Source: a virus (lineage: Duplodnaviria > Caudoviricetes). Taken from it: 64,000 bases of DNA. The notes below the pieces were generated by a model. That model had not been told where the DNA came from. It saw only the letters and a list, made by a program, of their open reading frames with translations, and ran no database searches. Position numbers and translations under genes: made by a program. The stretch is taken from IMG/VR virus record IMGVR_UViG_3300005686_000008; one strand, 5' to 3'. Shown here one piece after another: positions 44,101-64,000 of the stretch. How positions within the stretch are numbered: position 1 is the stretch's first letter; each line of letters starts with the position of its first letter.

Positions 44101-44496
44101 ATGAAAAGGATAGAAAGTAAAAACTACGCAAAATCAAAGACGGCTCAAGTAAATCAAGAAGATATAAGAAGCCGTGTTTTTGATTTTGCTAAAAAGATGT
44201 TTCATCTTGCTAAAAACGCAAGAGTGATTATTAGCATGAACGAGGTAGGAAACTTATTCGTAGGCGAATATGGATGGACAGATGAAGGCAAGAGGATACA
44301 CGATATGTCAGTAAGGGTTCTCTCCAATCCAAGGTCTTCTATTCAAGAACTTTTTGAAATCATAGAAAGCATTATAAATCTAGCAGGCGATAAAGAAGTT
44401 GCGGACGGAACCCCTCCCGGAAGAGGCCAACCTCGTGTTATTGGTCCAGAGTTGATTACTGAATATAGAAACCTAAAAGCAGAAGCCAATTTCTAA
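44101..44496 (+). CDS. hypothetical protein with N-terminal KTAQ motif
   Basis: GGAG SD; flanked by 17-bp direct repeats. Confidence 0.65.
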   Translation: MKRIESKNYAKSKTAQVNQEDIRSRVFDFAKKMFHLAKNARVIISMNEVGNLFVGEYGWTDEGKRIHDMSVRVLSNPRSSIQELFEIIESIINLAGDKEVADGTPPGRGQPRVIGPELITEYRNLKAEANF

Positions 44497-44624
44497 AATT
44501 AGGTATACGTCACTTAAAATTCGCGCACAGAGGGATACCTTGCTTGTTTATTCCTGACCCTAATCAGAAGCCAATATAATAATACAAAGGACTAAACAAT
44601 TATATTGTGGAATCCCACAATATA

Positions 44625-45170
44625 ATGAAAGGCTTTACTCTCATCGAGTTGCTTGTTGTTATAGCGATAGTTGCGATACTCTTATCTCTTGCTATGACGG
44701 CTCTTTCAAAATCTCGTGATACAGCAAGGGGAGCCATCTGTAAAAACAATCTACACCAACTCGCAACTTCTATTCAAATGTACTCGTTTCAATATAATGA
44801 TTTACCAGACGCTTGCCTTATCGAGGGCATGATTTCAGAACATTCTCTTTCAATAAAGCTAGAAAACTTTCTAGACGCTCCAAAACCAGAAATCGGCAAA
44901 AGAGTAAACCCTTGGTGTTGTCCGTTTGACGAGCGATATTATAAACTCTGCGGAGGCAGTTATCATTATGCTCCTGCATCATTACGAAATACCTATACTC
45001 TTCCAGTTTTGAAGATTTACGAGAGTATTCCAAGGATGGCTCTTCTTACGGACATTTCTCCAAGAAAAGATAGCAGTTATCATCTTGCGAGGATTGACGG
45101 TTCGGTTATAGATGCGAATAGGACGACGCCTTTTCCTGATACAAGGTGGTTGTTTGATTATCGAAGGTAA
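44625..45170 (+). CDS. prepilin-type (DUF1559-like) protein
   Basis: KGFTLIELLVVIAIVAILLS...CKNNLHQL...WCCP.D. Confidence 0.85.
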   Translation: MKGFTLIELLVVIAIVAILLSLAMTALSKSRDTARGAICKNNLHQLATSIQMYSFQYNDLPDACLIEGMISEHSLSIKLENFLDAPKPEIGKRVNPWCCPFDERYYKLCGGSYHYAPASLRNTYTLPVLKIYESIPRMALLTDISPRKDSSYHLARIDGSVIDANRTTPFPDTRWLFDYRR

Positions 45171-45189
45171 GGACTGCCGATACTCTAGT

Positions 45190-45483
45190 ATGGCAAAGAA
45201 ACCAATCAAAGAAAAGAAACTAACCAAAGAGAAGATAGCATCGCAAATTGTAAACGAAGCATGTCATCTATACAATAAGATTTTATTTGGACAAAAGAAG
45301 CTCAAAGGAACTTTTGAGGATTTACAACAAGTTTTGGTTGCTTGTATTTATTGCGTTCGAAGCAACAACTATAACGAGGCTCTTATAATTCTTGAAGACT
45401 TATCTTCTGTAAAGAGGTCTAGCAAGACCTTGCGAGACTTGATTACGAAGCACAACGATCTTACAAAGAAATCTAGCACATAA
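45190..45483 (+). CDS. hypothetical protein
   Basis: ORF. Confidence 0.55.
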   Translation: MAKKPIKEKKLTKEKIASQIVNEACHLYNKILFGQKKLKGTFEDLQQVLVACIYCVRSNNYNEALIILEDLSSVKRSSKTLRDLITKHNDLTKKSST

Positions 45484-45736
45484 CGATTTGGCTATTACGA
45501 ATAAAGTAATGGGACTTACATCCGCCCCGATGCTGTAACGAAGGTTCAAACGTTACAGAGCCATCGGGGTTCTTCGTTAATGTCCAACCATCATTCCATC
45601 TTGGCTTGATAGAAATAGCAATTTTTGAACCGCAACCGCATCCGCAAAGATGGACAGAGCAGCCATACTCTTCAGATATGTATAAAGTATCCTTTTCGAC
45701 CTCATTGGGGATATACTCGCAAAAGACAGTTTTCAT
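45473..45736 (-). CDS. DUF6527-like Cys/His protein
   Basis: HLCGCGCG...WTL...GSVTFEPS...CKSHYFI. Confidence 0.75.
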   Translation of the reverse strand: MKTVFCEYIPNEVEKDTLYISEEYGCSVHLCGCGCGSKIAISIKPRWNDGWTLTKNPDGSVTFEPSLQHRGGCKSHYFIRNSQIVMC

Positions 45737-45897
45737 GGATTTTTCTTTCTTTAGATTGATTCTTGGGCTATCTGTATATGCATAGCAATGTTACATCAAA
45801 CCTTGTTTTTCTATAAAGGGAGAAGGTTAGATGATGTCGAAATAAGAAGGGTACAGGATAATTTCGCGCAAAGGCATAAAGCAAGGGATTGGTTTTT

Positions 45898-47592
45898 ATG
45901 TGTGAACATTGCACAAATGATGGTTTAGAAAAGTTTGCTCTTCTCATGGGAAGGCATTTTACTATATATCCATTTCATCAATCCTTAGCAATGCTTCCGC
46001 CCGACATTCAACAGCTTACAGTCAATCGTTATCAAACGCTACTAAACAACCCTGCTTCGGGAGCGAACATCAAACCCATAACAAGAAGCAATGGAGAGAT
46101 GTATGCGGCGGAGATAACAAAAGGGCATCCTGGGTATAGGGCATTAGCCTATAAGCTAGGCGAAATCTTTGTTTGGTATTGGATTGGGGCGCATCGAGAA
46201 TACGAAAAGATGATTTATAAGAGTATTCCGGTTGAAGCCATAAGGAAAGCTCAAAAGGAGTTAGCGAACATGACAAATAAGAAATCTTCGGAATATTTCA
46301 ATCTTAGCAAAGAGGCCCAAGCGGAACCTCCTTATATTCCAGAAGGCGTACAGCCAAATCCTGAATATCAGCAAATGCTAGATAATCATGCCAAGAATCC
46401 AACTCGTTGCTCTCAGTGCGGCGAAGTTATGGACCATAAGAACGTACTAAGTCCATCGCATCCTATGATATATGATTGTCATAAGTGCGGACACAGGTTC
46501 AATCCTGATAATGAAAAGTTTACAGGAAAGTTTGCTCAGTTTGAGGGAAGCATGGGATTACCATCTATTCCTCCATCGCAACCGCCAACAGATCCTACTC
46601 TTCCAAAATCTCCTAATAACAAGTTTGATGAATGTCCGCAATGCGGAGGTCCGATGTCTGATTGGGAGGAGGGGGAGGTTGATGCTTGGAACCAAAGTAC
46701 CGAGACTCATTATACAAAGCCAAGCGGCAAAGAATACAGGACATGCGCCGAGTGCGGTTATAAAGAAGAGCAAGAAGTTTACAACCCAAGAAACGACCCC
46801 GACTATCAGTATGAGAGGATGAGGGATGACGAAATGGACGGGGGAAGATTTGCTTCATCTCTTGGCGCGAAAATTGCCGCTGGCGAGCATCCATCAAAAG
46901 GCGAAGGTCATAAGTGTATGAAGTGCGGCAAGCCAACGCAAGCTGGTTGGGGACCAACGATGTGCGCCGAGTGCGCGAAAAACGAAAAGAAGGCAGGTTC
47001 TTATTTTGATTTGTCAAAGGTATCTCAGGTGAAGAGCGAAACTTGTCCGAAGTGTCATAGCGGGTTTTTATCTCAATGGGAGATGGAGCAAAAGCCATCA
47101 GACCAAGGAACGATGGGTATAACGAACATGCTCAGTCGTTCTTGTAGCAACGATATGTGCGATTTTTATGAAACGAAGCCATATCAAGCCGAGCAGCCCG
47201 GCGGCAATCCTTGGGCCGGTTCAGACTTCTTAGGCAAGGATTCGGATATCCCGGACAGCGATTTTGGTAATAACGATTCTATTGTAGCTTCGGGATCTGG
47301 GAGGAAGACGGCTCAGTTTTTTGACGAAGCGATTCAGCAACCGAATAATGAAGTTATTCCTTGTAACAGGTGCGGCGAGCAGAAGCCTGATGTTGAGGAG
47401 AGGAACTCGTATGGGATATATGCTGGCAGGATGTGCGCTGAGTGCGCATATGATTCATACAGGGATCATTGCGGTCTTGTAAAGAATCCTGACGGAACGT
47501 ACAGCGAAGGCTCTCAGGGGGATACGAGGGAGTTAGAGGACATGGGGGAAGTTATAGAACCGGACGGCAATGACGAAATGAGATATTACTAA
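45898..47592 (+). CDS. modular protein: RelE/ParE-like N-terminal domain plus five zinc-ribbon modules
   Basis: YRALA...VWYWIGAHREYE; repeated CxxC pairs separated by KxAQ-type linkers. Confidence 0.7.
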   Translation: MCEHCTNDGLEKFALLMGRHFTIYPFHQSLAMLPPDIQQLTVNRYQTLLNNPASGANIKPITRSNGEMYAAEITKGHPGYRALAYKLGEIFVWYWIGAHREYEKMIYKSIPVEAIRKAQKELANMTNKKSSEYFNLSKEAQAEPPYIPEGVQPNPEYQQMLDNHAKNPTRCSQCGEVMDHKNVLSPSHPMIYDCHKCGHRFNPDNEKFTGKFAQFEGSMGLPSIPPSQPPTDPTLPKSPNNKFDECPQCGGPMSDWEEGEVDAWNQSTETHYTKPSGKEYRTCAECGYKEEQEVYNPRNDPDYQYERMRDDEMDGGRFASSLGAKIAAGEHPSKGEGHKCMKCGKPTQAGWGPTMCAECAKNEKKAGSYFDLSKVSQVKSETCPKCHSGFLSQWEMEQKPSDQGTMGITNMLSRSCSNDMCDFYETKPYQAEQPGGNPWAGSDFLGKDSDIPDSDFGNNDSIVASGSGRKTAQFFDEAIQQPNNEVIPCNRCGEQKPDVEERNSYGIYAGRMCAECAYDSYRDHCGLVKNPDGTYSEGSQGDTRELEDMGEVIEPDGNDEMRYY

Positions 47593-47675
47593 ACGTGGAA
47601 GTTTTGGATCTGCGCGAAAAAAAATGGGCCGAAAAATTTTGCGAGCGTGGCCGAGCTAAGGGAATGGGGGATTAA

Positions 47676-47873
47676 ATGTCTACATGGTATGAACTATCAA
47701 AAAAGGCGGACGGGCAGTGGCAGAACGTTGGCCTAGCTGAGGTTCAAGACAATGATACGTTTAGAGAGAAGATTCTTGATATGTACAAGAAGAGGTTTCC
47801 TATTCTTCAAATATCAAGACAATTAGGTGTTGGTCTTCATGCCGTTGAGTCAATAGTAAAAGATTCTCTGTAA
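47676..47873 (+). CDS. small HTH protein
   Basis: ILQISRQLGVGLHAVESIV; N-terminal WYELSKKA. Confidence 0.65.
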   Translation: MSTWYELSKKADGQWQNVGLAEVQDNDTFREKILDMYKKRFPILQISRQLGVGLHAVESIVKDSL

Positions 47874-47891
47874 CAAGTGTCAGGAATAAAG

Positions 47892-48257
47892 ATGGCTTGG
47901 TATAAGATAGCACAACTAGCAACAAAGCAACAACTAGTACAAGCCATTGTTCAGGTCAAAGGTACTTTAATTGATAACGGCAGTAGCGTTTCTTGCCTTG
48001 CTCCTCATAAAATGATATGGAATTCTTCTTCCAATCATGAACTAAGTATCATGTATGAGCGAGGATGGAAAAAAGGCGAAGTATATTATGAATTATTACA
48101 AGAGGTTCTCATGGGAGTTTCTCAGTGTAACGATCCAGAATGCGAGTGGTGTAGCGAATTAGGTAATGAAGGCTCTCCAATGGGATTACCATATGGAACA
48201 AATCCAAGAGATTGCATTGTTATAAATGGAGTCCTTCAGCAAAAGGGTGTTGTATAA
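47892..48257 (+). CDS. hypothetical protein
   Basis: N-terminal MAWYKIAQ. Confidence 0.65.
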   Translation: MAWYKIAQLATKQQLVQAIVQVKGTLIDNGSSVSCLAPHKMIWNSSSNHELSIMYERGWKKGEVYYELLQEVLMGVSQCNDPECEWCSELGNEGSPMGLPYGTNPRDCIVINGVLQQKGVV

Positions 48258-49804
48258 TGACAGTATTTGCTTCTAAAATAGATTCTCCCAGAGACCCAAG
48301 ACAGCCTTGGGAAATGACTGGACAAGAATACTTGGCAGACAATTATACTGGCAGTATTTCTTCTGGCGCTTACGATTCTTATGCTGACTCTAAAGGCCTT
48401 GATTGGGTAAAATATGAAAAATTTGGAATACTGATTGATACTCTTAATATAAATGGTCAACCTGTAGAAATACGAGCAAAACAAGAAAAGAACAAATATG
48501 TAAAGCATGATGAAAATGATGAAATTGTTCGAGACCAAAAAGGGATGGCCTTATATCTTACTGATGAAGAGATTCAATCTAAAGGATATTCATTAGAAGA
48601 GTTTACTATTGCGGCTTTTGCGAATAAGATTCCCGTAGGTATTGCGAGCGATGAATGGGGAGCATCTGGTGTCTGGGTTGTAAAGGATTTTCAACGTCAA
48701 GGTTTAGGTATTCGATTACTAGAAGAATTACATCGCCTAAATCCTCGTCTCGCGAAAAATAGGCTTGGTCAAATGACAAATGCTGGTTGGAACATGACAA
48801 AAGCCTATCATAAACGTCTTGTTCAAAAGGCCTTGCAAGAAGGGAAGAGTGTTCCTCAAAATGTTTTACAAGAATATCCGGAATTTGCTAATCAAAAACA
48901 ATCTATGGTTACATATTTCGAACTAGAAAAAATTGCAGATAGACTAACTATTGCGCCAAATGTTTATCCAGAGGACAGACCAATTCTAAAAGACTCTGAT
49001 TATGTTAGAGTTTTTCATGGATTTAGGGATATGGAAGATGCGATAGCAGCATGTCGTTATGGTATATCTGGAAAATCTAGAGTTGGAAGAGTTTATTCGT
49101 ATGAGGCTGACAACAATCCAACAGGCTTATTTGTTACAACCAATCCAAAGGCGGCTGCTGAGTTTGGTGAAGTCATCATTGAGTTCCATGCAAAAGGAAC
49201 AGAGCTAGAGGCTCCTGTTTGGCCGGGAGGCTCATATACCGTTCAAGGTCAAATGGCTCAATACTTTGGTAATAACAAAGCTAAAAGAGAAGAAGCAAGA
49301 CAGTTAGCCCGACAAAGGGCCATTGAAAGAGGATTTGATCCTATCAGCAAGAGCGACCGTCCTGAACTTGCAAATACTCTCATGGCATTTGGAGAAAACC
49401 AAGCGCTCTTTATTGGGCATCTTAATCCAAACAGAATAACTAGAGTCTGGTTGAGAGGAAATAGAGGAGAGCTTCATGTTCTTTCTCGAAGAGAGTTTCT
49501 TGTAAAAAACAAGGGTTACAATTTCTCTCAAAAGAGCGGCAAAGATGCATGGCAAGCATCTCATAGAGCATTTCGAGTTGATGAAGACTTCAATCCAGAT
49601 AAGTTAGTTCAATGGCTTTCTTCCAAATATGGAAATCGTTGGTCTTTCGATGAGGCCAAGAAAATCCTTGTAAGAGCTTTAGGCGCTAAAGACTTATACA
49701 CAATGAAGTATGAGTTATTGAAGTATGTTTGGCCGAAACAGTTACCTGCCGCTCTAAGATGGCTTGGCAGGGAATACAGGGCAACCAACAAATTAACGCC
49801 TTAA
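48257..49804 (+). CDS. GNAT acetyltransferase plus ADP-ribosyltransferase-like fusion
   Basis: VWVVKDFQRQGLG; RVFHG...GLFVTTN..AAAEFG. Confidence 0.7.
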   Translation: MTVFASKIDSPRDPRQPWEMTGQEYLADNYTGSISSGAYDSYADSKGLDWVKYEKFGILIDTLNINGQPVEIRAKQEKNKYVKHDENDEIVRDQKGMALYLTDEEIQSKGYSLEEFTIAAFANKIPVGIASDEWGASGVWVVKDFQRQGLGIRLLEELHRLNPRLAKNRLGQMTNAGWNMTKAYHKRLVQKALQEGKSVPQNVLQEYPEFANQKQSMVTYFELEKIADRLTIAPNVYPEDRPILKDSDYVRVFHGFRDMEDAIAACRYGISGKSRVGRVYSYEADNNPTGLFVTTNPKAAAEFGEVIIEFHAKGTELEAPVWPGGSYTVQGQMAQYFGNNKAKREEARQLARQRAIERGFDPISKSDRPELANTLMAFGENQALFIGHLNPNRITRVWLRGNRGELHVLSRREFLVKNKGYNFSQKSGKDAWQASHRAFRVDEDFNPDKLVQWLSSKYGNRWSFDEAKKILVRALGAKDLYTMKYELLKYVWPKQLPAALRWLGREYRATNKLTP

Positions 49805-50347
49805 ATATTGTTGAACCCAGTACATATCAATAGCATAGTAGTTTTTTACGTTGATTACTGAGGTATCAGTTCTAACAACATTAATAGTTCCGTTTTCTAC
49901 TATAAAGAAGTCCTGCATAAGCTGAAGATTTGGAACCTGTTCATACATCTTTATCATGGGAAGGACATAGTTACGTCTCATGAAATATGGAGCATACAAG
50001 TAACTTCCGCCTCCTTCGCCATACCAGTACAAGATCTTATCATTAGGGCAAGCCCACGGCATTATTCTTTGTTCTACTGAACCGGAAGGAGCAGAGATAA
50101 ATGATGATAGTTTGTATGATAGATTTAGTTCTGGAACAGAACATTCTCTTCCAAATGCATCTGGAAAGTCTTTCCTTTCATCAACGTACATTTGAATGCC
50201 TGTCGCTATTTGTCTGAGATTATTTCTGCAAACGATCTCTCTAGATGTAAACCTAGCCTTTGCAAGAGTAGGCGTAATGATGGCAATAAGAAGTCCGATA
50301 ATAAAAATCACAACAAGCAATTCTATTATTGTAAAACCCTTTGCCAT
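49793..50347 (-). CDS. prepilin-type (DUF1559-like) protein
   Basis: KGFTIIELLVVIFIIGLL...CRNNLRQI...WACP.D; paralog of 44625..45170. Confidence 0.85.
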   Translation of the reverse strand: MAKGFTIIELLVVIFIIGLLIAIITPTLAKARFTSREIVCRNNLRQIATGIQMYVDERKDFPDAFGRECSVPELNLSYKLSSFISAPSGSVEQRIMPWACPNDKILYWYGEGGGSYLYAPYFMRRNYVLPMIKMYEQVPNLQLMQDFFIVENGTINVVRTDTSVINVKNYYAIDMYWVQQYLRR

Positions 50348-50446
50348 ATACACTTAAGTATATATAGGGAGTTTGTAGTCCTCCTATTTTAACATAAATA
50401 CGGCGTTCTTTGTGTTTTTTGGCATTACATGACGATGTTTGTGATT

Positions 50447-50695
50447 ATGGCAAAATCAAAAGGGCGGCGGGGATTAATCACAACCAAGGACTTTGTAAGA
50501 ACGCTTTCCAAGATGGGGATAAGTTGCAAGCAAGTTGAGGGCGGTTATAAGTTTGTGAACCCCAAAACAAAGCAAACAAGCAACATTCATGCTCATGGGG
50601 AAAAGCACGAATTAAATCCATCTGTTATTAAGAAAACTGTTATATGGCTCGGTTTGGATTACGATCAGTTCAATTCGGCGGTTTTTGATCAGTAG
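50447..50695 (+). CDS. HicA-like protein
   Basis: L.KMG....VEGG....P......IH.H...EL....IK, HicA-fold pattern. Confidence 0.55.
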   Translation: MAKSKGRRGLITTKDFVRTLSKMGISCKQVEGGYKFVNPKTKQTSNIHAHGEKHELNPSVIKKTVIWLGLDYDQFNSAVFDQ

Positions 50696-51752
50696 GCTCA
50701 AAAGGCTCTTGGTCATACTGGGGTTCATAGAGCGGCGGCATTGGAGGGGATGGTTTCTTTCTAGTAGGGAATTTAGAACCAACTTCTTTAAGTTGTTTAT
50801 CCCAATGTCTAAAATCTGTCATATTGCTTAGTTTGCTCATGACTGATTCTATTTCACTAGAATCTTCTCCTGTCGCTTCGGAAATAAACGCCAACATCGG
50901 ACCTGATTGGTGAGATGTATTGATAACCAAGTTAATTGAGGATATAGCCAAATTAAAAGGCATATTTGGAATTTGTAATATCATTTTATAAGCATTCTCA
51001 ACTCGGTCTCTAGTTTCGTCTATTCCTCTTTGTTGCCAGAACTCATACCAAATAGGGAAACATGCAAACTGCATAAATTCGAAAAGTATTTCCTCAAGAC
51101 CATAAAACTGAGATAATGCAGAAATAAGTTGTATCATATCATCTTGGTAGAATGTATTTACAAACTCGGAAAAATCCATTTCTTTATAATATTGTTCCAA
51201 TTCTTCTTTTATCTGGTCTTCTGTTTTTTCATTTCCTGAGTCAGAGATAAGATTTTCTAGATCAGCTTCAATTAGTTCATTTTTACAATCATTGAGCCAT
51301 GCTGATATTACTTCAGCTTCTCCGCTTTTTACAGCATAATCCATTTTTTCAAACACTATGCTTGGGTCAATGTTTTTAACATTCTTTTCAACATTAGCTT
51401 CTGTAAGAATTAATTCAGCGACTGCTTCTGGAGTATGACCGTATATATCATCCCATTGTTTAATTCTGTCTTCTGCCCATATTGCAGGCGAAAGAAGCGC
51501 GTGGCCTTGTAGCCAAGTGGCAAAAACTGGTTCTAATATATTAGCAATATCCTGAATACATTGTCGAGTAGAGGCTTCTAAGCCTTTGAGAATATTTTCA
51601 TATCTTTTGGGATAACCCTTAAAACCTTGAGTAGTAATTCTTTGATATTTGTAAACAAGTTCATAGAGAGTCTCAAGACAACTAATAAGAGATCTATTGT
51701 TGTATTGTTTATCCCAGATTTGGCCGTATTTTGCTAGTTCAAACCATCTCAT
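50670..51752 (-). CDS. hypothetical protein with N-terminal WF tag
   Basis: MRWFELAKYGQ; long ORF. Confidence 0.75.
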   Translation of the reverse strand: MRWFELAKYGQIWDKQYNNRSLISCLETLYELVYKYQRITTQGFKGYPKRYENILKGLEASTRQCIQDIANILEPVFATWLQGHALLSPAIWAEDRIKQWDDIYGHTPEAVAELILTEANVEKNVKNIDPSIVFEKMDYAVKSGEAEVISAWLNDCKNELIEADLENLISDSGNEKTEDQIKEELEQYYKEMDFSEFVNTFYQDDMIQLISALSQFYGLEEILFEFMQFACFPIWYEFWQQRGIDETRDRVENAYKMILQIPNMPFNLAISSINLVINTSHQSGPMLAFISEATGEDSSEIESVMSKLSNMTDFRHWDKQLKEVGSKFPTRKKPSPPMPPLYEPQYDQEPFEPTDQKPPN

Positions 51753-51835
51753 GCTTATTATCTTATCGTAAAAAATGAAGTATTCCTTGTTGCTCAAAGG
51801 AAAAGGCCCTTCTTTTTCGATAATATAAGTAAGAT

Positions 51836-52333
51836 ATGTGGTATACTTTAGCCTCAGAAGGAACGGTCACGTTATATCATGGCACAAGTCGTGAGAATTA
51901 TCTTTTAATGAAAATAAGCGGAGTTTTCAAAAGGTCAGGAGTTGCGAATCTAACCACTAATAAAAAGTCAGCTATAGCTTGGGCGAGAGCAATAGCAGGA
52001 GATGACGATCTTGTTGTTTTAACATTTGTTGTACCTGTTGAAATGCTTGATTACAATCTTAATGTTGAAAACGTTCTTGGTCTTACTGATATACCAATGA
52101 AGTTTTGCAAAAAAGTAGAAAAAATACGTCCTGTAGACGAGATAATAGATCCAACAGATGTTATACATGATACAAGGATTAAGAATCTCAAACCAGAAGA
52201 TATGTCTAATCCATCCAACCCTCAGCATGAAAAGCAAATTCAGGACAAGTTGAGTGAATTACGCAGAAATCCTAGTGCATATATCCCTGCATGGATGAAG
52301 AATGATCCGAGATTAAAGGGCTATCTAAGATGA
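51836..52333 (+). CDS. ADP-ribosyltransferase-like protein
   Basis: TLYHGTS...LTTNKKSA..WA. Confidence 0.65.
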   Translation: MWYTLASEGTVTLYHGTSRENYLLMKISGVFKRSGVANLTTNKKSAIAWARAIAGDDDLVVLTFVVPVEMLDYNLNVENVLGLTDIPMKFCKKVEKIRPVDEIIDPTDVIHDTRIKNLKPEDMSNPSNPQHEKQIQDKLSELRRNPSAYIPAWMKNDPRLKGYLR

Positions 52334-55300: not shown

Positions 55301-55902
55301 AACCTCAACTTTTCCCTCATCCAAAGTCTAAGACTCCAGAAGCTTTAGCTCAAGAAGAAAACGCCAAGTATGTTGCATTTACAAGAGCCATGAAAGAGCT
55401 TCATGTTCTTGCTCCAAGCAAGGAAGAGAAGAAGCAAGAAAGAAACGCCTCTTCTAAATCAAAGAAAAAGAACGGATGGTATGTAAAAGCTAAGACTCCA
55501 AAATCAATAAAAGTGGTTGAAGCCTTTATTACTCCTGAAAACCTAAGAACTCTTCAACAAATGGGGTATCAGAAGAATGAAGAGTTTTTCATAGGTCCAT
55601 ACGAGTTGTATATCATAGGTCATCCTGGCGCTCAAATGTATCAACTTGCCATACAAACAAGAAATACTCAGGCCGTAGATATTAAACAACAAAACATGAA
55701 ATTCAAAATGGAGCCAGATACAGATCCTGGCTATATCAATGATATAAAGAGTAAGATTATAGAATGGAAAAGCAAATACGGTGATTTAGTTATTGCGTCT
55801 CATAATCCAAAGAAAACAGAAAAGTACAAAAACATTCTAACTTATCTTGGATTTGAACCAAGGCAAACAAACTTTATGGGTCACACTCTTTATGTAATAT
55901 AA
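52330..55902 (+). CDS. UvrD/SF1 helicase with N-terminal topoisomerase-type C4 zinc ribbon, an intein and an extra C-terminal module
   Basis: CPQCG..M...FWGCS.Y..C; ALAGTGKT, DEVQD, VGDPNQ|SIY.FRGAD, NYRS, HRSKGLEF, YVAFTRA. Confidence 0.9.
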   Translation: MNWYKKAHQMKKKANGPCPQCGGPMVKRKNSKTGQEFWGCSNYSKGCRGTKPVEAPRQQPQAPQPAIARPQPIQAPVPAPADKKLWLLATMLDDGTPIAVTRGVNGWEYKRENGEEGTLPNANIANLIKSVEKDGKKVSGAAPEEVFKIFHQMNNQQPQEVEKPKEEGVKGRIPADRMSPHQKGIENSFLNTQQSVMINALAGTGKTTMLRHLATFKDPGAKWLYLVFNKKNQLEASEGKGKFPNGVEVKTSHSFLGQVLGRSADLNAIQKTDLWNRGGERISVILDSMMEGDNTFPQSVRFVAKQVIKQVASWSKGFAVNPASLNAAEQVAAIIKQYGVDTDLSTNKDNPQPGRAIDYTPQIIDKVLDLLHYCLPGNAPSAELGIMRDHDDTLWYSAINPNIKWPRYDVVLADEVQDFNRCQTFMLQKLSEAGARVVAVGDPNQCQPAGTIISLTNGISKPIENVVAGDEVITYNTKKSYFPGTKNQGRKVIQVASRDFYGQLITIKTSKYEHKCTPNHRCLVKFNADNKYALYLMIKGDSARVGIAKVKYFQSFGPAMRAISEEADSLWVLDVFETQEKARLEEMLTWSKFGLPGLIFKHNGQKTGSQEFIDKFYNQLGNNLEKAKKCLSHYGRDFSYPLWTKKEQERFGTLKQNYIGSKKSFVTQSCNLISGAMQVRTFEGSNRGGNWETIQVSREDSNCKVYSLEVEPTEDGKRLYIANNIVTHNSIYMFRGADAQAFNSVQQVLGNAPNGNAPHSLPVNYRSGRKIIQYVNENTHVKDLQAGKDFDGTVTENRPAEEAVSGIVTEKNRGGRLAMQTSFIARTNAPLVRTALDLMSNDVDFVMIGRDFSKELTDHIENVTGKGRNAKVIPINNLDMALIDYVSRMENAWKGKISKEGELKEMKIINDALMDVIEFLKRNNFRDRKLNVQVTNSTTFISYIKQKFSGVNIDDAAEAQKLRERDPLSFVTLTSAHRSKGLEFDRVFILEPQLFPHPKSKTPEALAQEENAKYVAFTRAMKELHVLAPSKEEKKQERNASSKSKKKNGWYVKAKTPKSIKVVEAFITPENLRTLQQMGYQKNEEFFIGPYELYIIGHPGAQMYQLAIQTRNTQAVDIKQQNMKFKMEPDTDPGYINDIKSKIIEWKSKYGDLVIASHNPKKTEKYKNILTYLGFEPRQTNFMGHTLYVI
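53665..54516 (+). mobile_element. intein (284 aa) in helicase motif III
   Basis: starts CQPAGT, contains CTPNH block B, ends IVTHN followed by Ser. Confidence 0.92.
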
Positions 55903-55911: not shown

Positions 55912-58101
55912 ATGAGATGGTTTACCAAATTATCTGATGAACAAAGCAGAAGGCAGGGATTGCTTAAACAGTTCCCCAAAGCCGATCCTGCGCTTATAGA
56001 TAATGTTATGCAAGCCGATCCGTCTATCAATAAACAATATAGTCGTTTCATTTTGCAATGGGCATTAAACGGCAGCATTCGTTTACCAGAAGATTCCGGA
56101 AGGCTCAGTAGGTCTCTTTCTTTCTTCGGTTCAAACTTCAATAAGTTTCAGAAGAAAGACATTAGCGCTTATCCAACTTTCAATGATTTTGAGTTTGCCG
56201 TTGATAGTGTTATTGATATAATGCAGGGCAAAGACAACAGAAGCAACAGGCAAGTTGTTAGGGACATAAAGACAGAAGGAACCAGAGAAGTTTATCGAGA
56301 TAATGAGTGGCGTATTATTGAGATGACAACGCCTCAAGCCGTATGCGAACTAGGTAAAGGAACGAAGTGGTGTACGGCTGCTGATGATGACGGTCTAGAA
56401 ACTGCTGAGTCTTACCTACAGAGCGGTTCTTTATTTCTCATTTTGTATAATAGCGGAACTAAATGGGAAAAGTATGCTCAGTTCACGAAAGACCTTGATC
56501 AAATAATGGATGTTAGGGATAGGCAGATTGTAAAGCCTCCTCAATCTCTTGTTGTCGCCATTAAGTCCTTGATAGAAAAAGGCATTTTGAGGGCTGACCA
56601 TTTCTGGGAAAACTTTACGGCTTCAAGAGATTACGAAGGGGTAGACCAGGATTTTGTAAATTGGTTCAAGTATGAAGAAGAAAAATCTGATGGATTTTTA
56701 CCTAATGAGGTTCTTAAAGAGATATTCAGGCATATAAAATCTTATGGAGTAAGGATGCCTGCCGTTGAAAACAACATTATATTTACAAGAACAAAGAGCG
56801 ATAAAAAGAAATATCACGGCCTTATTGATGGCGATAGAATATCTGAATATCTTGAAGCTATTGGCGTAAACAAGAGAATAAAAGAAAAAGAGCCTGCTAT
56901 ATTGCAATCTACATTTGCTATGGAATATTACATGGATTTCTACAATGAACTGAAAGGATACAACAGGCTTCGTAAAGAAGTAGTCAAAGATATAAATGGA
57001 CTTGAACGTTGGCCAGAACTTGAGCAAGCCTTTCTATCTAATCCTTATAGATCAGAAGAGATGGTGGAGTATCTTTGGCAGACAAATGGGCATAAGAGAG
57101 CCGAGCCTATTTTTGAGCAATATCTTCTTAATTGCGCGAAACAATCAAAGAGTCAGTCCTTTGAGCATTGTATTCAGTATGCAAAAAACTGTAATATGAG
57201 ATGGGACGAGCTTGAAAAAGCCATTCTATCGACTGAGGATCCAGCATCTCTTACTGAATATGCTGAAGATATTCTTAGACAAAGGTGGCCTGAGGCGGAA
57301 CCTTTGATTCTAAATAACACATGGAATGCGTATTTGTATGCAAGAGAAGTTATTAGAGGAAGATGGCCAGAGCTTGAAAAGATCCTTTTAAGGAGCGGAG
57401 ACGGGTGGACTAGCGCTGCTTATGCTGTAAACGTTATGAGATCAAGATGGCCCGAGATGGAAAGATATATGAAGAATTTTGGATTTGATAACACAAATCA
57501 ATTATATGAAAAGACATTTGGGGTTAAACTGAAAGAGGCTAGCATGACTTGGTATAAAAGGTGTCAAAGACTAACTCCTCAGCAGATGGGGATGTATCAA
57601 AACTTCAAAAGCCCAACTGGTGTTCAGTTGAAAGGTAGCGGAATGTCTGCTGTTTTTCAGATTCCCGGCATCAATCAAACAATCAATGGCGCTCAACTTA
57701 TGAATCAAGTTGTTGCCAGAATAAAAGGCGTTCTTAATCAAAACAACGTTCACACAATAGATACAAGTCCTGTTTCTAGAGCCGATGCTATAGGGTTGGC
57801 AGTAAGTTCTGAACCAGGAACTGTCCATGTCGATATTGCAAAAATATTCAATATAGTCAAGAATCAGACGTTGCCTGCTGTTACCCAACTTGACGGGACA
57901 ACGGTTGACAAAGACGTTCAAAATGACATTATAGGTAAAATTTCATCATACATTACGAATCAGCTAGCAAATACAGCAGCTCACGAATCTCAGCATAATA
58001 TAGACTATTTTCAGAGTTTTCCAAAGGGCAAGTTTGAGTCTCCTGAAGGAGGGGCAGAGGCTTTTGGTAATCAAATAGCAAATCAGTATTTTAGACCATG
58101 A
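55912..58101 (+). CDS. modular protein: PcfJ-like WCT domain, RWPELE repeats, C-terminal HExxH module
   Basis: GTKWCT; 5 RW[PD]E.E repeats; AAHESQH. Confidence 0.7.
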   Translation: MRWFTKLSDEQSRRQGLLKQFPKADPALIDNVMQADPSINKQYSRFILQWALNGSIRLPEDSGRLSRSLSFFGSNFNKFQKKDISAYPTFNDFEFAVDSVIDIMQGKDNRSNRQVVRDIKTEGTREVYRDNEWRIIEMTTPQAVCELGKGTKWCTAADDDGLETAESYLQSGSLFLILYNSGTKWEKYAQFTKDLDQIMDVRDRQIVKPPQSLVVAIKSLIEKGILRADHFWENFTASRDYEGVDQDFVNWFKYEEEKSDGFLPNEVLKEIFRHIKSYGVRMPAVENNIIFTRTKSDKKKYHGLIDGDRISEYLEAIGVNKRIKEKEPAILQSTFAMEYYMDFYNELKGYNRLRKEVVKDINGLERWPELEQAFLSNPYRSEEMVEYLWQTNGHKRAEPIFEQYLLNCAKQSKSQSFEHCIQYAKNCNMRWDELEKAILSTEDPASLTEYAEDILRQRWPEAEPLILNNTWNAYLYAREVIRGRWPELEKILLRSGDGWTSAAYAVNVMRSRWPEMERYMKNFGFDNTNQLYEKTFGVKLKEASMTWYKRCQRLTPQQMGMYQNFKSPTGVQLKGSGMSAVFQIPGINQTINGAQLMNQVVARIKGVLNQNNVHTIDTSPVSRADAIGLAVSSEPGTVHVDIAKIFNIVKNQTLPAVTQLDGTTVDKDVQNDIIGKISSYITNQLANTAAHESQHNIDYFQSFPKGKFESPEGGAEAFGNQIANQYFRP

Positions 58102-60596
58102 AGATAATAGATACACATTCTGGGTGGTTCAAGGAAGCTCAGCTATCCAATTATTTAGTTCAATTGGGGTACAGCCAGCAGTTTATCCAATACGTTTCTA
58201 CATTACCAAAGCATGTTCAAAAGGCGATTGGCAACGAGATAAATAGCAATGGTCCTATTCCTGAACCTCAGTTTATGCCAATGATTCAGCAGTTTCTTTC
58301 TCAGCCGCCTCCGGCCCCAGGTCCAGTTCAGAAAAATCAACCAAGGACTCCGGTTCTTGATGCAAGATTTGCCAACCCGCAAGCAAAAGAAGAGTTTTTC
58401 AAGACCATACCAAAAGAATACGTTCCTTGGGTTATTGGGCAATTGAATAATCAAAGAACGCAGTTTATACCAGATGAAGATTCTCCAAGATTGATTGGCG
58501 CTCTTAAGGCCTTTACTGAACTCAAAGGCAGAGCAGATATTCCTATTGAGAAAGACATAAACAAATATCAAAACCTGTTAGAACTCGAAAATGTTGTTGA
58601 GAGATATTCTGGCACTGGCTCTAAGTCAGGCGGCTATTTACAGTACAATCCAATGAAACTCCCGGGAGTTGAACTTATTGCGACTCTCAAGAACGGAGAA
58701 CAGCTTTACAAAGTTTCTGATGTTGGTTCTGTCGAAAAAATGGGGCTTGGAACAAAATGGTGTACAAGAGGAGACTATGGATCTCGCAGCATGGCTGAAA
58801 GATACATACAGGAATATAAGCATTTGTTTATTATGGTAAAAGACGGCAAGCCATATATGCAGATGACTCCTGACCTTTATCAAATTATGGATGTAAAAGA
58901 TAATCCCATGCCTCTTCCAAAAGAGCTATACAAAATGTTTGGCCCTCAGTATGCTAAACAGATTGGCGTAACTCCCCAGGTTTTGCAGTTATTTGAACAA
59001 GAAGGCGCTGATAAGAACGAGGAGCTTCTTCTAAAGACTGTTGCGAAATCTCCAAATGCAATAAGACTTGCATCTCCTGAGTTAAAGATGAATCCTCAGT
59101 TTGCTATACGAGCTATACAAAATGGCGTGGATTCTAGCGAGTTTGAAGATTTGCTAAATGATAAACATATTGGCGATGATTTTACAAATGTTGTTGAAAG
59201 ATTGCAAGGCAATTACGATTATAGAAACTTGAGCTACAGAGATCTTAGCGACGATCTTGAAAATATCATTTTTGGAAAAGATAACTTTGGAGTAGAGGTA
59301 AGCCTTTCTAGTTGGGACTATACAGAGGCGTATGATGAGGTTCTTGAAGAACTAAGCGGGCGTTCTGGCGGCTACAATAATGATGGAGGAGGCGAAACTC
59401 ATTATTGCGCGAAAGTTCTTGCAAGAGCGGCCATTGAATCTGACATGTGGAAAATAAAAGAGGGAGACTTCAAGCAAGACAAGATAATGTATATTGCTCT
59501 TGGTTTAGCACAAAGCCATCGTAAAGTAAGTAAGATGAACTACGAAAGATCAAATAACGCATACGTTAATCCTCTTATTGAACCATTCCTGGAACCTGCA
59601 AGAAAAGAAATTGAAGAAAGTCTTAAGTATTATGGCAATACTGGAATGGTCAGACCGGATGATTTTGAACAAAGAGTTAGAAAAAGAGCTTTTGAGAAGA
59701 TGCAAGAAGAAAGAAAGTATCCAAATCTAAAGTCTCTTGACGAACTCGATCCGGCTGTTAAGAGAAACTATATTTGCGAAGCTATAGACAAGACTTCTAG
59801 AATATCTCAAGTTTATGATAGAAGACAAAAGAATGATGAGGATTTCTATTTTGAAGATGATTGGATGGAATATCCAGACGAGCCAGATCCTGATGATTTT
59901 GAGAGCGATGATGATTATAGAAAAGCTTATGATGAATGGGAAACCGCAAAAGACAGTCAAAGAGAAGAAGCAGAAACTGAACATAGAAATAATAACCTTC
60001 CTTGGTGTTTGGATGATGCAGTTATAGAGGAAATGGCAAGACTACTTGAAACGACCTACAAGAGTTCTATGAAGCTTCCGTCATGGATGGTTAAAATGTT
60101 TGGGTCTCAAAAGAGCGGATCTCGTCCTCAGTTGATATGGTCGCTTGAGCATCTAATAAGAAAGGCTAAGAAGCCGAAGGCTACCGTAAAGACTAAGAAG
60201 CCAAAAAGAAAGGTAAAAGCAAACGGGTGGTATAGTGTAGCAGGAAACTTGTCAGAGGAGGAATTGGAGAAAAAGAGAAAAAGCGATTTCACAAAACAAT
60301 ATCTAGAGACTGAAATAGAATGTGTCGGCTATCATCACGGGCAAACTGACATGATGGTAAGAGCATATGACACATATACGAATCAATATGTGGGCTATTT
60401 GAGCTATAGTATTTTCAATGATGAGATTCATGTTTCCATGATTGAGGTTCTTCCAAACTACAGAAGGCAAGGAGTAGGCACCCTTCTTATAAAGAAAATG
60501 AAAGAAGAAAATCCTAAAGAGAAACTCGTTCCGGGTTTATTTACAAGCGATGGTTATCCATTTTTCAAGGCCATGAAAAGAAGAAGGGTTGTTTGA
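58098..60596 (+). CDS. modular protein: PcfJ-like WCT domain plus C-terminal GNAT
   Basis: GTKWCT; IEVLPNYRRQGVGTLL. Confidence 0.75.
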   Translation: MKIIDTHSGWFKEAQLSNYLVQLGYSQQFIQYVSTLPKHVQKAIGNEINSNGPIPEPQFMPMIQQFLSQPPPAPGPVQKNQPRTPVLDARFANPQAKEEFFKTIPKEYVPWVIGQLNNQRTQFIPDEDSPRLIGALKAFTELKGRADIPIEKDINKYQNLLELENVVERYSGTGSKSGGYLQYNPMKLPGVELIATLKNGEQLYKVSDVGSVEKMGLGTKWCTRGDYGSRSMAERYIQEYKHLFIMVKDGKPYMQMTPDLYQIMDVKDNPMPLPKELYKMFGPQYAKQIGVTPQVLQLFEQEGADKNEELLLKTVAKSPNAIRLASPELKMNPQFAIRAIQNGVDSSEFEDLLNDKHIGDDFTNVVERLQGNYDYRNLSYRDLSDDLENIIFGKDNFGVEVSLSSWDYTEAYDEVLEELSGRSGGYNNDGGGETHYCAKVLARAAIESDMWKIKEGDFKQDKIMYIALGLAQSHRKVSKMNYERSNNAYVNPLIEPFLEPARKEIEESLKYYGNTGMVRPDDFEQRVRKRAFEKMQEERKYPNLKSLDELDPAVKRNYICEAIDKTSRISQVYDRRQKNDEDFYFEDDWMEYPDEPDPDDFESDDDYRKAYDEWETAKDSQREEAETEHRNNNLPWCLDDAVIEEMARLLETTYKSSMKLPSWMVKMFGSQKSGSRPQLIWSLEHLIRKAKKPKATVKTKKPKRKVKANGWYSVAGNLSEEELEKKRKSDFTKQYLETEIECVGYHHGQTDMMVRAYDTYTNQYVGYLSYSIFNDEIHVSMIEVLPNYRRQGVGTLLIKKMKEENPKEKLVPGLFTSDGYPFFKAMKRRRVV

Positions 60597-60702
60597 TATC
60601 TATAACTTGGCTTAGAGACCAGTTCGGTCTTGTAGAAAATAGAGGTATTTTCTATACCAACTAAGTTTCAGAGAAGAGAGAGAAGACATGACAAGACCTG
60701 CG

Positions 60703-60731
60703 CCCGCTTCTTTATTGAAGCGGGTTTTTTA
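60703..60731 (+). terminator. intrinsic terminator
   Basis: CCCGCTTC-TTTATT-GAAGCGGG-TTTTTT. Confidence 0.8.
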
Positions 60732-60839
60732 TTAGTATTTTGTCGAAAATGATTATAGATAAACGTTAACAGAAAGAAGGATGAAGGCTTTTTTTAGCGA
60801 AATATAGAGGTAGCCTCTAAAATAGTGGAGTCATGTCTA

Positions 60840-63800
60840 ATGGGATGGTTTTCAACAGCAAAATTGCTAGTAAAGTTCGCAGGCCCTAAAGAGAGAATCC
60901 AGCAGTTTAAGATCACAGATCCTGATTTGCAGCTCTTTATTATGCGTTATGATCAGCTCATTAAATGGGGCGGCTATACTGTTGAAAACCCAGGAACAGG
61001 CGAAATTATACAAAAGAAGATTGACCCCAAAAATGGACCTGCTGATGTCAATGAATATATAAAGACCCAACTTGTTCCTAGAGTTTTGAACAAAACTGAG
61101 GAAAAGACTCCAGAAGACGAAATAAATAAAGATAGTTATTTCATGAAAGATTATAATATTGAAGAACGATATAACTTCAATAAACTTAATAACATTCACA
61201 ATCCAGAATTGGAACACGCTTATTGGCTTTGGCAGAATGATCCCAAAGCAGGCGTTGCCTTTTATTTAGGAGTTATTAACAAACAAAAGAAAGATGTATA
61301 TAATGGATGGAAAGAACTTCTTGTAAATCATCAAGAGTATTCTGCTCATCCGGCTTTTGTTTATATGGTACTTTCTCAGGTAGTTGAATCTTCTGATGCT
61401 TCTCAAGAGAAGCCGCCAGTACAGGCAAATCCAATTGTTTTGGCTAAGATGTTCAACAAAGTTAATAAAGCGGTTTTCAAATATAATGGACCAATTAAGG
61501 ATGAAGGGATATATAAGAAGATTCTTGCTCTTTCTAGAGAGACTCTTTCTCCGGAAAAGATATCTGAAACATCAGAAGTTCCGGTGGAAAAAGTTCAGCA
61601 AATTCTTGGATTAAGAGGTAAGAAACTTAATGAAATAGCAAACGAGACTGGAATACCTCAACCTAAAGTTCAACAGGTTATGGGGCTTGCTAAAGAGACT
61701 CGTCCTGCCGCCGATATTGCAGCCGAGACCGGAGTTCCTGTTGATCATGTTCAGGGAGTTATAGATCAAAATAACTCATCTAAGATTGATATTCTAAAGA
61801 CTTATCAAAAAGATCTAAACGAACATAGCCTTGAAATGACAAGGCAGATTTTTGATGAGAAGACAAAATCCGGTTGGATTAAGTTGCCTATGAAAGACAA
61901 CGTAAAGCCCGGAGTTGACGAGAAAGGCAATCCTCTCACAAAAGAACAAGTTTGGGATAAGAACCTAGACATATTGAACAACTTCTCTCTTCCTAATAGC
62001 TGGTGTACCACAAAGAATGTTAATGGTCCATTATACTTATCTGAGGGCGACTTCTGGATTCTTGTTGAAAACGGCAAGGGTTGTGTTGGTATTCGATTTG
62101 GCGAAAAGAATAAGAAAATATATGAGATTGCCGGGGACCAAAGTTTTGCTGGCGGAGTAAGTCGTTCTTGTCCTGTTACTTATTGGAGAGAGATTACAGA
62201 TCTCATATTCAGAGAAGGACTTGAACCAATGATAACTGGCTCTGCGAGGTATCATTGGGAAAGAATTCTCAAAGAAAGAGATAATAACAAGAGCTACTTC
62301 AATGATGATGGAACTCCAAATATGGAGGAAATTGAAGAGCTTATTACAAGAATCAAAGCAGACCCATCCTTGTATAACAATGCTATAAAAAATGAACAAT
62401 TCCAAGAGTTTCCAGAGATAATGCAATCTCTTCAAACAGCTTGTAAGGAAGCGTGGTTTAAGAAAATTCATGCTCTTCAAGGAGCTGACGCTTTCCAGCT
62501 TGCTGAAGATGTTGCTCAAAATGCAGCTCAAATGCCAGATTTCGTTCTAAGAGATCCGGCTTTTATTGAGAATGTTCACGGCAGACTTGCCGCTATGTAT
62601 CAAAACTCCCCTGAACAAGTTGCAAAAGTTTTGGGCAAAGTTCCTAACCACTGGGACATATATCCAAGAGGTAAAGAGATATTTAAGCAAGCAGTTATCA
62701 ATAAGTATGCAAGCGGTTTATATTGGAAATCTAACGTCTTTAGTACAAGTAGAAAAACAAAGGAGATGAAAGAGAGAATAAGGGTTGCCAAAAAGGAGTT
62801 TGAAGATATTCAGAAGGCCATTGGCGATTACATGCCGGAATTAAACGCAGACCATGAGTTTGAAATGGCTATTCAGCAAGCGAAAGTAGAAAGCGCTCCT
62901 GCGGCCATGATAGAGGGTTATTTTGCTATTGATATGCCTCGCGATGCTGTTGCTCAGTTTTTTGATAATCCGGAAAACGTAGATGCTATGGCTAATAACC
63001 TTTCTACAAAAATAAGTCCAGAAGTAAAAGACCCAAGAGATGTAAGAAGAGACCATTCTGTATACTTAGATAAAACATTTGAAAAAGAGCTTTCAGCTAT
63101 TGCTCCATTATGGGTTCGTAGACTTCCTGGATTCCAGTCTTTTGCTGATAAAGTAAAACAAAAGGTTCTTAGAACTAACATTGATATGTTTAGAAAATTT
63201 GAACCTCAATTCAAGAATGATGAGCTTTTCCAAGAGTACAAAAAACACATGCTTCAGCAAGGAGCTTTAAGAAACAGACTAAGATGGGGAGATGAAGAAA
63301 TAGATCCAAGACTTCTTGCCGATCCTGATTATCAAAAAGCGACAGGTCAGGTTGATGATCAAAACATCAATCAAGTTCTTACAATAATGAGAACAAGAGC
63401 ATCTGCATTCCTTACTCTTCCACTGGAAACTCAGCAAAATCCAAAGATTCAAGAGGCATATATTGCAGCAAGAGCAACAACAACAAATGATGCGTTTAAG
63501 GCTCTTCTTGTAAAAGAGTTCCCTCGTTTGCCAGACTTTATGAAAGAAGATCAAAGACTATTGAATGCATATATACTAACAGTTATTAACCTTCTTATAG
63601 TAGCAAGACCTGGATCTAAACAATATCTTGACTGCAAAGATATTGACCCAATGGCGTATATTGAACCAAGAATTATTGAATTGTGCAAAGCCAGAGGAAC
63701 TCCAATCGCCTATAATGCCGAACCATTACCAGAGATAGATCAAGGCGATATTGAATTTGGCGGACCAGATATTCCTCCAGATGAACCAGATAATCCTAAT

Positions 63801-63851
63801 GTAATAGCATCTCAACTAGGCTGGTATAGGAAATCTTCGATAATATATTGA
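60840..63851 (+). CDS. large protein with HTH-like repeats and a WCT domain
   Basis: three EI..ETG[IV]P...VQ repeats; NSWCT; WF tag at N-terminus and WY tag at C-terminus. Confidence 0.75.
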   Translation: MGWFSTAKLLVKFAGPKERIQQFKITDPDLQLFIMRYDQLIKWGGYTVENPGTGEIIQKKIDPKNGPADVNEYIKTQLVPRVLNKTEEKTPEDEINKDSYFMKDYNIEERYNFNKLNNIHNPELEHAYWLWQNDPKAGVAFYLGVINKQKKDVYNGWKELLVNHQEYSAHPAFVYMVLSQVVESSDASQEKPPVQANPIVLAKMFNKVNKAVFKYNGPIKDEGIYKKILALSRETLSPEKISETSEVPVEKVQQILGLRGKKLNEIANETGIPQPKVQQVMGLAKETRPAADIAAETGVPVDHVQGVIDQNNSSKIDILKTYQKDLNEHSLEMTRQIFDEKTKSGWIKLPMKDNVKPGVDEKGNPLTKEQVWDKNLDILNNFSLPNSWCTTKNVNGPLYLSEGDFWILVENGKGCVGIRFGEKNKKIYEIAGDQSFAGGVSRSCPVTYWREITDLIFREGLEPMITGSARYHWERILKERDNNKSYFNDDGTPNMEEIEELITRIKADPSLYNNAIKNEQFQEFPEIMQSLQTACKEAWFKKIHALQGADAFQLAEDVAQNAAQMPDFVLRDPAFIENVHGRLAAMYQNSPEQVAKVLGKVPNHWDIYPRGKEIFKQAVINKYASGLYWKSNVFSTSRKTKEMKERIRVAKKEFEDIQKAIGDYMPELNADHEFEMAIQQAKVESAPAAMIEGYFAIDMPRDAVAQFFDNPENVDAMANNLSTKISPEVKDPRDVRRDHSVYLDKTFEKELSAIAPLWVRRLPGFQSFADKVKQKVLRTNIDMFRKFEPQFKNDELFQEYKKHMLQQGALRNRLRWGDEEIDPRLLADPDYQKATGQVDDQNINQVLTIMRTRASAFLTLPLETQQNPKIQEAYIAARATTTNDAFKALLVKEFPRLPDFMKEDQRLLNAYILTVINLLIVARPGSKQYLDCKDIDPMAYIEPRIIELCKARGTPIAYNAEPLPEIDQGDIEFGGPDIPPDEPDNPNVIASQLGWYRKSSIIY

Positions 63852-63875
63852 AGAACAAGATAGTATGGAGAAAAG

Positions 63876-64000
63876 ATGAGTAGCTCATATTTTGATATTA
63901 CCAAGATTGCTCAGGCTGAAGATGAAGTACCTTTAGAAGAGGTACAACCGCTACAGCCAAGGCAACCAATACAACCAGCACAACCGGCTCAACCAGTACA
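63876..64000 (+). CDS. partial CDS running off the window end
   Basis: GGAG SD, MSSSYFDITKIAQ then QP-rich. Confidence 0.65.
   Translation, partial: MSSSYFDITKIAQAEDEVPLEEVQPLQPRQPIQPAQPAQPV

Follow-up and report, generated by a model that had tools for sequence, protein, structure and literature searches.

A short peptide shared by enzyme polyproteins and head proteins of a phage G-like huge phage: a candidate capsid-targeting and cleavage tag

Introduction

Why should a row of unrelated phage enzymes begin with, or be divided internally by, the same short peptide? The question is raised by a 64,000-nucleotide stretch of the virus record IMGVR_UViG_3300005686_000008 (Duplodnaviria; Caudoviricetes), hereafter the window, which is the minus strand of positions 222598-286597 of a single 370,652-bp virus contig of a sludge phage. 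The contig is 73% complete according to CheckV; another assembly of the same phage amounts to 505 kb. The nearest cultured relative is Bacillus phage G, to whose gp27 the major capsid protein is 50% identical. An original prediction, made on the window alone, had placed 16 copies of the peptide in a cluster of enzyme genes and proposed that it is a portable packaging and cleavage tag, loading the enzymes into the head for injection. All 16 are found at these positions, as are the bare K-T-A-Q and K-F-A-Q sites and the minus-strand copy that it had listed (Table 1). A literature search on the motif strings returned nothing relevant and no published description of the tag. Here we analyzed the frequency of the peptide, its conservation and its relation to the head proteins of the phage, and we conclude that it is probably a clade-specific counterpart of the capsid-targeting and cleavage peptide of phage T4, used here inside polyproteins as well.

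Results

The tag recurs far above chance in the enzyme cluster and in the head module

Two forms of the tag were distinguished. The short form, W-[YF]-x-x-[AS], is mostly found straight after the initiator Met; other copies follow Lys-rich internal linkers or, in two proteins, lie at the extreme C-terminus. The long form, [FYW]-[FYN]-x-L-x-K-x-[AS]-[QD], ends in K-x-A-Q. Two hybrid copies (47685 and 51729) combine a short-form start with a long-form end, and W-[YF]-K-x-A-Q is the sequence of the best short copies; both forms thus have in common, at matching spacing, a hydrophobic residue, a Lys, a small residue and usually a Gln. At least one copy is present in each of twelve open reading frames (ORFs) located between 44071 and 67007 (window numbering) in a cluster of 15 genes, and the tag was not found in the remaining three, two pilin-like genes and one small ORF. 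The Pfam domains of the twelve tagged ORFs differ, or none is matched. Codons for identical motif residues vary synonymously from copy to copy, indicating that the repeat exists at the protein level and that selection acts on the peptide; a repeat or recombination signal at the DNA level was rejected on the same ground.

Frequencies were assessed on a crude gene set derived from codon usage (358 genes and 110,119 residues, nearly all on the same strand). The standard genetic code fits, and an alternative code was rejected as an explanation of short upstream ORFs. The strict long form was observed 6 times, compared to 0.06 in shuffled proteomes and 0 in reversed ones. K-x-A-Q was observed 32 times for 16.7 expected over the whole set, and 19 of the 32 copies fall within the cluster and the head module (from terminase via portal to capsid gene, as delimited by PHROG matches), which together hold 16% of the residues. 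Each of these two regions has 1.1 copies per 1000 residues compared to 0.14 elsewhere, an 8-fold difference (Fisher p = 1.9e-8), where region-specific composition predicts only 2-3 copies per region; the reversed K-x-A-Q pattern was flat and showed no enrichment. W-[YF]-x-x-[AST] is enriched in the cluster only (11 copies, about 8 times the rate elsewhere), and 7 of the 12 M-x(0-3)-W-[YF] starts of the genome belong to the 15-gene cluster. The other 316 predicted proteins are almost free of tags. The sites are far above chance frequency, the level at which the original prediction had declared itself wrong.

Chance resemblance, or an N-terminal segment inherited within one paralogous family, might be suspected of a short form with only three defined residues, whose genome-wide count (27 copies of W-[YF]-x-x-[AS]) barely exceeds that of shuffles (19.7). 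We give this explanation almost no credence, as the domains downstream of the tag come from different families and chance is excluded by the clustering, the terminal position, the conservation in relatives and the independently trained matrix described below.

A conserved site of a head protein has the same motif

Two long-form sites are present in a 396-residue protein, whose gene lies two genes upstream of that of the portal. In seven relatives both sites are invariant islands within a variable N-terminal half, and site 2 directly precedes a strongly conserved C-terminal domain. The pattern [FY]-N-[LMIF]-x-K-x-A-Q is matched by 109 of 120 homologues (31-64% identity), with a run of Lys before it and mostly His or Ala after it. 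Site 1 survives heavy insertions and deletions and constitutes the N-terminus itself in some homologues. A weight matrix was trained solely on site 2 of foreign homologues and applied to the proteome of this phage, where six hits reached at least 8 bits compared to 0.75 in shuffles; among the hits are the cluster tag at 46294 (22 bits), site 1, and the N-termini of a head-module protein and of the SNF2-type helicase of the cluster. Since a matrix built on foreign sites finds the cluster tags, the long tags of the enzymes are the same motif as the conserved site of the head protein.

K-x-A-Q sites accompany a putative HK97-type prohead protease

The motif is shared by other proteins of the head module. 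The portal and a 412-residue protein have two K-x-A-Q sites each, several small proteins encoded between terminase and portal start with the long form or with M-x-K-T-A-Q, and these features are kept in seven related contigs. The presence of K-x-A in head proteins, proposed as a check in the original prediction, thus holds for the portal, for a protease-scaffold fusion and for several small proteins encoded between terminase and capsid, all of which have K-x-A-Q.

The protease-scaffold fusion, a protein of 1991 residues, is encoded between the portal and the major capsid genes, as in the HK97-type (S78) arrangement. Residues 60-190 match head maturation proteases (PHROG E = 2.9e-11), and three motifs of this domain, N-H-Q, G-T-S-M-G and E-D-S-F-V-V-N-P-A, are invariant in five phages; they fit the catalytic His, the catalytic Ser and the terminal strand of the HK97 gp4 family. 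K-V-A-S and K-T-A-G sites directly follow the protease domain, and six repeats ending in T-Q-A-Q and two K-x-A-Q sites are found further on. The fusion is kept in relatives at 1872-2010 residues. No match to PF03420 (Peptidase_S77) was found across the 370 kb of the 73%-complete record, and a search of the protease domain sequence against solved structures returned nothing relevant. A complex predicted between the protease domain and the tagged N-terminus of the SNF2-type protein scored 0.20 for a mark of 0.32, which gives no verdict either way.

Several further features of these proteins were recorded. The protease domain has a Cys/His-rich insert, the fused part of about 1700 residues is of low complexity and rich in Gly, Ala and Glu, and its six repeats are tandem copies of the Y-P-E-V-I-T-Q-A-Q type. 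The portal ends in ~100 residues that match HNH endonuclease families (PHROG 559, residues 640-744), and a K-K-A-Q site lies inside this stretch, near its end. A DUF192 (COG1430) protein encoded in the head module (genome 172076-173110, minus strand) adjoins scaffold-like proteins.

The leader of one enzyme module varies with the type of prohead protease

One module of the cluster has the predicted fold of an ADP-ribosyltransferase (ART). Its AlphaFold2 model reaches a pLDDT of 94.9, and the PDB entries closest to it in fold are mostly ART toxins, DarT and Tpt1, all of them weak matches (E of at least 0.006, TM-scores 0.24-0.55). H-G and S-Y-E motifs are invariant or nearly so in the family, and no Pfam match was obtained. 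The 164 homologues of the module have clade-specific leaders: those of close relatives are of the W-Y or K-x-A-[DQE] type, whereas those of distant homologues have [LI]-x-E at their end, with Ala or Val as the next residue. An [LI]-x-E leader is found in 71 of 102 anchorable homologues compared to 14% of control segments, and a W-Y or K-x-A-type leader in 15 of the 102 compared to 4% of controls. When the leaders are aligned on a conserved Pro, the Glu of [LI]-x-E stands opposite the D/Q of K-x-A-[DQ], which suggests cleavage after that residue.

[LI]-x-E is the consensus of the T4 prohead protease gp21. The cleavage motifs of T4 Alt are I-T-E and L-T-E (PMC5694885). Proteases were searched for in 20 IMG/VR records encoding the ART-fold module, many of them fragments. 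The T4-type protease (PF03420) was found in seven records, in which every leader is [LI]-x-E, and the protease-scaffold fusion (1872-2010 residues) in three, in which every leader is W-Y or K-x-A; no mixed combination occurs in the 20 records. As two clades and many fragments are compared, this link is supporting evidence and not proof. A family of ~300-residue ART-fold proteins with leaders ending in [LI]-x-E is widespread in T4-like phages (IMG/VR records L048, L051, L055, L064, L065, L067 and L072); judging by these leaders, they are probably packaged, gp21-processed enzymes like Alt.

Short aromatic-basic terminal peptides can also act as protease-recognition or sorting signals, and the tag might be unrelated to the capsid, serving in the timed removal of the proteins by degradation, in their localisation or in their association with membranes. 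Such a role appears very unlikely given that the motif is enriched specifically in the head module and that the type of leader on the same cargo module tracks the type of prohead protease.

Internal tags coincide with module boundaries

The syntenic cluster was compared in three relatives (G001, G003 and G004). The claim that internal copies lie at domain boundaries was borne out: in relatives, the module that follows an internal tag is either a separate, tag-initiated gene or joined to another partner. Firstly, the ART-fold module is a separate gene in G001 and starts with M-S-W-Y-D-L-A-K-F-A-D, a hybrid tag. Secondly, the helicase of G001 and G004 ends 10-12 residues past the W-Y tag that is internal here (55477). 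Thirdly, a small zincin is joined to an unrelated domain here, free-standing in G004 and fused to the helicase in G003, with a tag before it in each case. Relatives at 45-70% identity retain the internal tags. At the N-terminus of the SNF2 protein, which has a W-Y tag at its end too, the long tag is invariant in three phages and the Pro/Gln linker behind the tag varies.

The chains delimited in this way combine a helicase with an extra module, an unnamed domain with the zincin, another unnamed domain with a GNAT module, and a GNAT-like half with the ART fold. Among the domain names given in the original prediction, the UvrD-type helicase, the GNAT of the 832-residue protein and the HExxH site could be confirmed, as could the SNF2-type helicase; the ART holds at fold level only, the GNAT of the ORF starting at 48212 is weak and below the Pfam cut-off, and RelE matched nothing in Pfam or PHROGs.

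The tag could be a docking peptide only, binding scaffold, portal or capsid interior and loading the proteins intact, as is the case for encapsulin cargo peptides and for the virion RNA polymerase of phage N4, with the internal copies as relics of gene fusion. Tags at N-termini, at C-termini and inside proteins, the variable last residue of the short form and the Met that follows many internal tags, as expected from the fusion of once-separate genes, would all fit. However, internal tags do not decay in relatives at 45-70% identity, the K-x-A-Q of the long form recurs in the scaffold-like protease fusion and in the conserved head sites, and T4-type leaders on the same ART-fold module end in a known cleavage motif. 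Docking without cleavage is unlikely in our view, although it is the strongest of the alternatives.

The zincin raises the question of another peptidase. A full HMMER search of 1.84 billion representatives returned 45 members of its family. By regular expression, the tag lies directly before the zincin domain, with no linker, in 29 of 38 examined representatives, and in more of them by eye; this holds in free-standing proteins of ~190 residues and in polyproteins of up to 1544 residues. The zincin itself, or a host enzyme, could therefore cut the tags, perhaps after injection, to release active modules, and autoprocessing by embedded metallopeptidases has been argued for polyvalent proteins (Iyer et al. 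2017). Yet tags persist where no zincin was found, in the examined parts of G001 (334 kb), G006 and three other records, all incomplete; the syntenic slot of G001 holds another module; and the motif is common to head-module proteins encoded beside a serine protease. We consider cleavage by such a peptidase quite unlikely and rank the zincin below the prohead protease as the enzyme that cuts the tags.

Location of the tags and neighboring genes

The tags, the modules that they delimit and the main head genes are listed in Table 1. A pattern search of viral contigs gave no relatives of the 1008-residue protein.

Table 1. Coordinates of tag copies, modules and head genes (window numbering unless marked genome)
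Feature	Position	Strand	Context
K-T-A-Q	44137-44148	+	near N-terminus of 141-residue ORF (44071-44496)
567-residue protein	45889-47592	+	zinc-ribbon segments split by four sites
Long tags of 567-residue protein	46294-46320, 47002-47028	+	
Bare sites of 567-residue protein	K-F-A-Q 46528-46539; K-T-A-Q 47305-47316	+	
Hybrid tag, W-Y then E-L-S-K-K-A-D	47685-47702	+	start of 65-residue ORF (47676-47873)
Short tag, W-Y-K-x-A-Q	47898-47915	+	directly after Met, start of ORF ending at 48257
Internal long tag	48914-48940	+	ORF 48212-49804, between weak GNAT-like half and ART-fold module
ART-fold cargo module	48941-49804	+	
Hybrid tag, W-F-E-L-A-K then Y-G-Q	51729-51746	-	after Met 51750-51752, gene 50670-51797
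Short tag	51839-51856	+	start of 165-residue ORF (51836-52333); kept in relatives
Short tag	52336-52353	+	start of UvrD-type helicase (52330-55902); followed at once by second Met and zinc ribbon
Internal short tag	55477-55494	+	after Lys-rich linker, between helicase and extra C-terminal module (55495-55902)
Short tag	55918-55935	+	start of 729-residue protein (55912-58101)
Internal short tag	57550-57567	+	directly before small zincin module (57568-58101; HExxH 57982-57996)
Short tag, W-F-K-x-A-Q	58125-58142	+	near start of 832-residue protein (58098-60596)
Internal short tag	60228-60245	+	after Lys-rich linker, before GNAT module (60246-60596); same place in G001 and G004
Short tag	60846-60863	+	start of 1008-residue protein (60825-63851), then K-F-A-G; kept in relatives
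Short tag	63822-63839	+	extreme C-terminus of 1008-residue protein; kept in G001 and G004
Long tag	63888-63914	+	start of SNF2-type helicase (63876 to 67007, past window end)
Large terminase	genome 180213-183230		PHROG match
Portal	genome 164605-166908	-	PHROG match
Protease-scaffold fusion	genome 156305-162280	-	1991 residues
Major capsid protein	genome 154632-155528		PHROG match

Three other features of the cluster were noted. The UvrD-type helicase is interrupted in its G-D-x-x-Q-S-I-Y motif by an intein of 284 residues (53665-54516), with Cys as first residue, His-Asn at its end and Ser thereafter, which is missing from the G001, G004 and G003 orthologues. The two untagged pilin-like genes are paralogues of ~186 residues (44607-45170 on the plus strand, 49793-50353 on the minus strand) with a prepilin-type N-terminus, G-F-T-L/I-I-E-L-L-V-V; they are similar to the pseudopilins of type II secretion, a possible clue to the host group. 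Three consecutive large proteins (at 56365, 58755 and 61998) have in common an unnamed domain with a G-T-K-W-C-T-type motif, for which there was no Pfam family and only a weak match to PHROG 28193.

Discussion

The peptide analyzed here is a defined motif that is enriched and conserved, stands at module boundaries, is shared with the head module and co-varies with the type of prohead protease. From these properties we infer that the peptide is bound, which protease acts on it and at which bond, and that the proteins are packaged and injected. A short linear peptide would dock each protein to the core of the assembling head, and its last residues would form the motif at which the HK97-type (S78-like) prohead protease of the phage itself cuts, approximately hydrophobic-x-K-x-A-Q, with the cut presumably after Q or D. 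The tagged helicases, the ART-fold enzyme, the acetyltransferases and the small zincin would be packed into the head, and the multi-enzyme chains would be cut into separate modules during maturation and then delivered with the DNA. The tag imagined in the original prediction is in keeping with this in being portable, in lying at module boundaries and in sharing K-x-A-Q with head proteins; the capsid propeptide that it looked for was not seen.

The closest parallel is found in T4, whose internal proteins IPI-III and Alt reach the core by means of a leader of 10-20 residues, the capsid-targeting sequence (CTS), which is removed by gp21 (Mullaney and Black 1996, reviewed in PMC5694885). Alt is a packaged ADP-ribosyltransferase trimmed by gp21 at both ends (PMC5694885). 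The tag resembles the CTS in being a short peptide at the termini of unrelated, non-essential proteins and in having at its end a head-protease motif common to core and scaffold proteins, the match to the protease being here a presumed one; one cargo is an ADP-ribosyltransferase in both cases (here at fold level), and the doubly tagged proteins recall the trimming of Alt at both ends. The code differs, W-[YF] and K-x-A-Q standing in place of [LI]-x-E, as does the protease, which is HK97/S78-like and fused to a protein of ~2000 residues, no S77 protease being found. Moreover, the tags are also internal here and divide polyproteins of 500-1200 residues, and the T4 system is known from experiment whereas the present one is read from sequence.

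Other systems share part of these features. Encapsulin cargo-loading peptides are short, are located at either end of the protein and dock cargo inside an HK97-fold shell; unlike the tag proposed here, they work without a protease and their cargo is not passed on to a second cell. In phiKZ and SPN3US, head and ejection proteins are matured by the proteases gp175 and gp245 at the motif [SAG]-x-E (PMC5694885, PMC10052503). These are likewise giant phages with many internal head proteins, in which each substrate has several cleavage motifs and both portal and scaffold are processed, but they have long propeptides, an S80 protease and sites mapped by mass spectrometry, compared to leaders of 5-12 residues and a deduced motif here. 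Polyvalent proteins are predicted to be packaged and delivered, their modules being released by proteolysis, and embedded metallopeptidases have been proposed as the processing enzymes; no common delimiter peptide was described (Iyer, Burroughs, Anand, de Souza, Aravind 2017, PMC5512222). The chains of this cluster are similar in joining helicase, ART, acetyltransferase and zincin modules, and single phage polypeptides carry at least two effector-type domains, by which polyvalent proteins are recognized. The polyvalent signature Pfam families (ART-PolyVal, MPTase-PolyVal and others) gave no match at E <= 0.01, and the zincin forms a family of its own (45 representatives) apart from them.

Several observations weigh against the proposed reading. 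The Pfam match of the protease domain to Peptidase_S78_2 is weak (16 bits for a cut-off of 24) and its AlphaFold2 model is poor (pLDDT 37 from an alignment of 5 rows). Some K-x-A-Q sites could be conserved simply because they lie in well-conserved proteins under structural constraint. No propeptide is evident in the major capsid protein, whose N-terminus is like that of phage G gp27. The association between leader and protease is confounded by phylogeny, with two clades and many fragmentary records. Finally, the last residue of the short form is variable (Q, S, K, G, H) and the head module has a single copy of the W-[YF] form, at a C-terminus, so that the short form is connected to the K-x-A-Q site through the hybrid copies and through shared position and behaviour only.

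Phage G has no M-W-[YF] starts and its first 50 kb contain no homologue of the 396-residue head protein, and hence it offers no direct experimental proxy. A 2025 multi-omics paper on phage G reported no cleavage sites. At least seven of its head-module proteins (gp5, gp9, gp10, gp12, gp13, gp17 and gp20; phage G 1-25000) start with a common [KS]-R-L-[KI]-K-type peptide, which may be a leader of its own.

A wider reading is put forward more tentatively, as a serious possibility that falls short of probable. Huge phages of the phage G type may follow a true polyprotein strategy, in which an HK97-type protease joined to a giant scaffold reads a single address-and-cut code (hydrophobic-x-K-x-A-Q, with the W-Y form as its minimum). 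Host-takeover enzymes, in strings that recombine freely, would be loaded as one chain and cut before injection, and the tag would serve as the recombination joint for the shuffling of modules.

If the reading of the peptide as a counterpart of the T4 tag is correct, a simple sequence rule would serve to list the proteins injected by a large group of huge phages, hardly any of which has been cultured, and the proteins so listed would be their first weapons against the defences of the host. It would also be useful to have a leader of just 6-12 residues by which foreign proteins can be loaded into a very large capsid. The load-then-cut principle of T4 would then have arisen with another protease family and another code, and a double-stranded DNA phage would process polyproteins by that principle.

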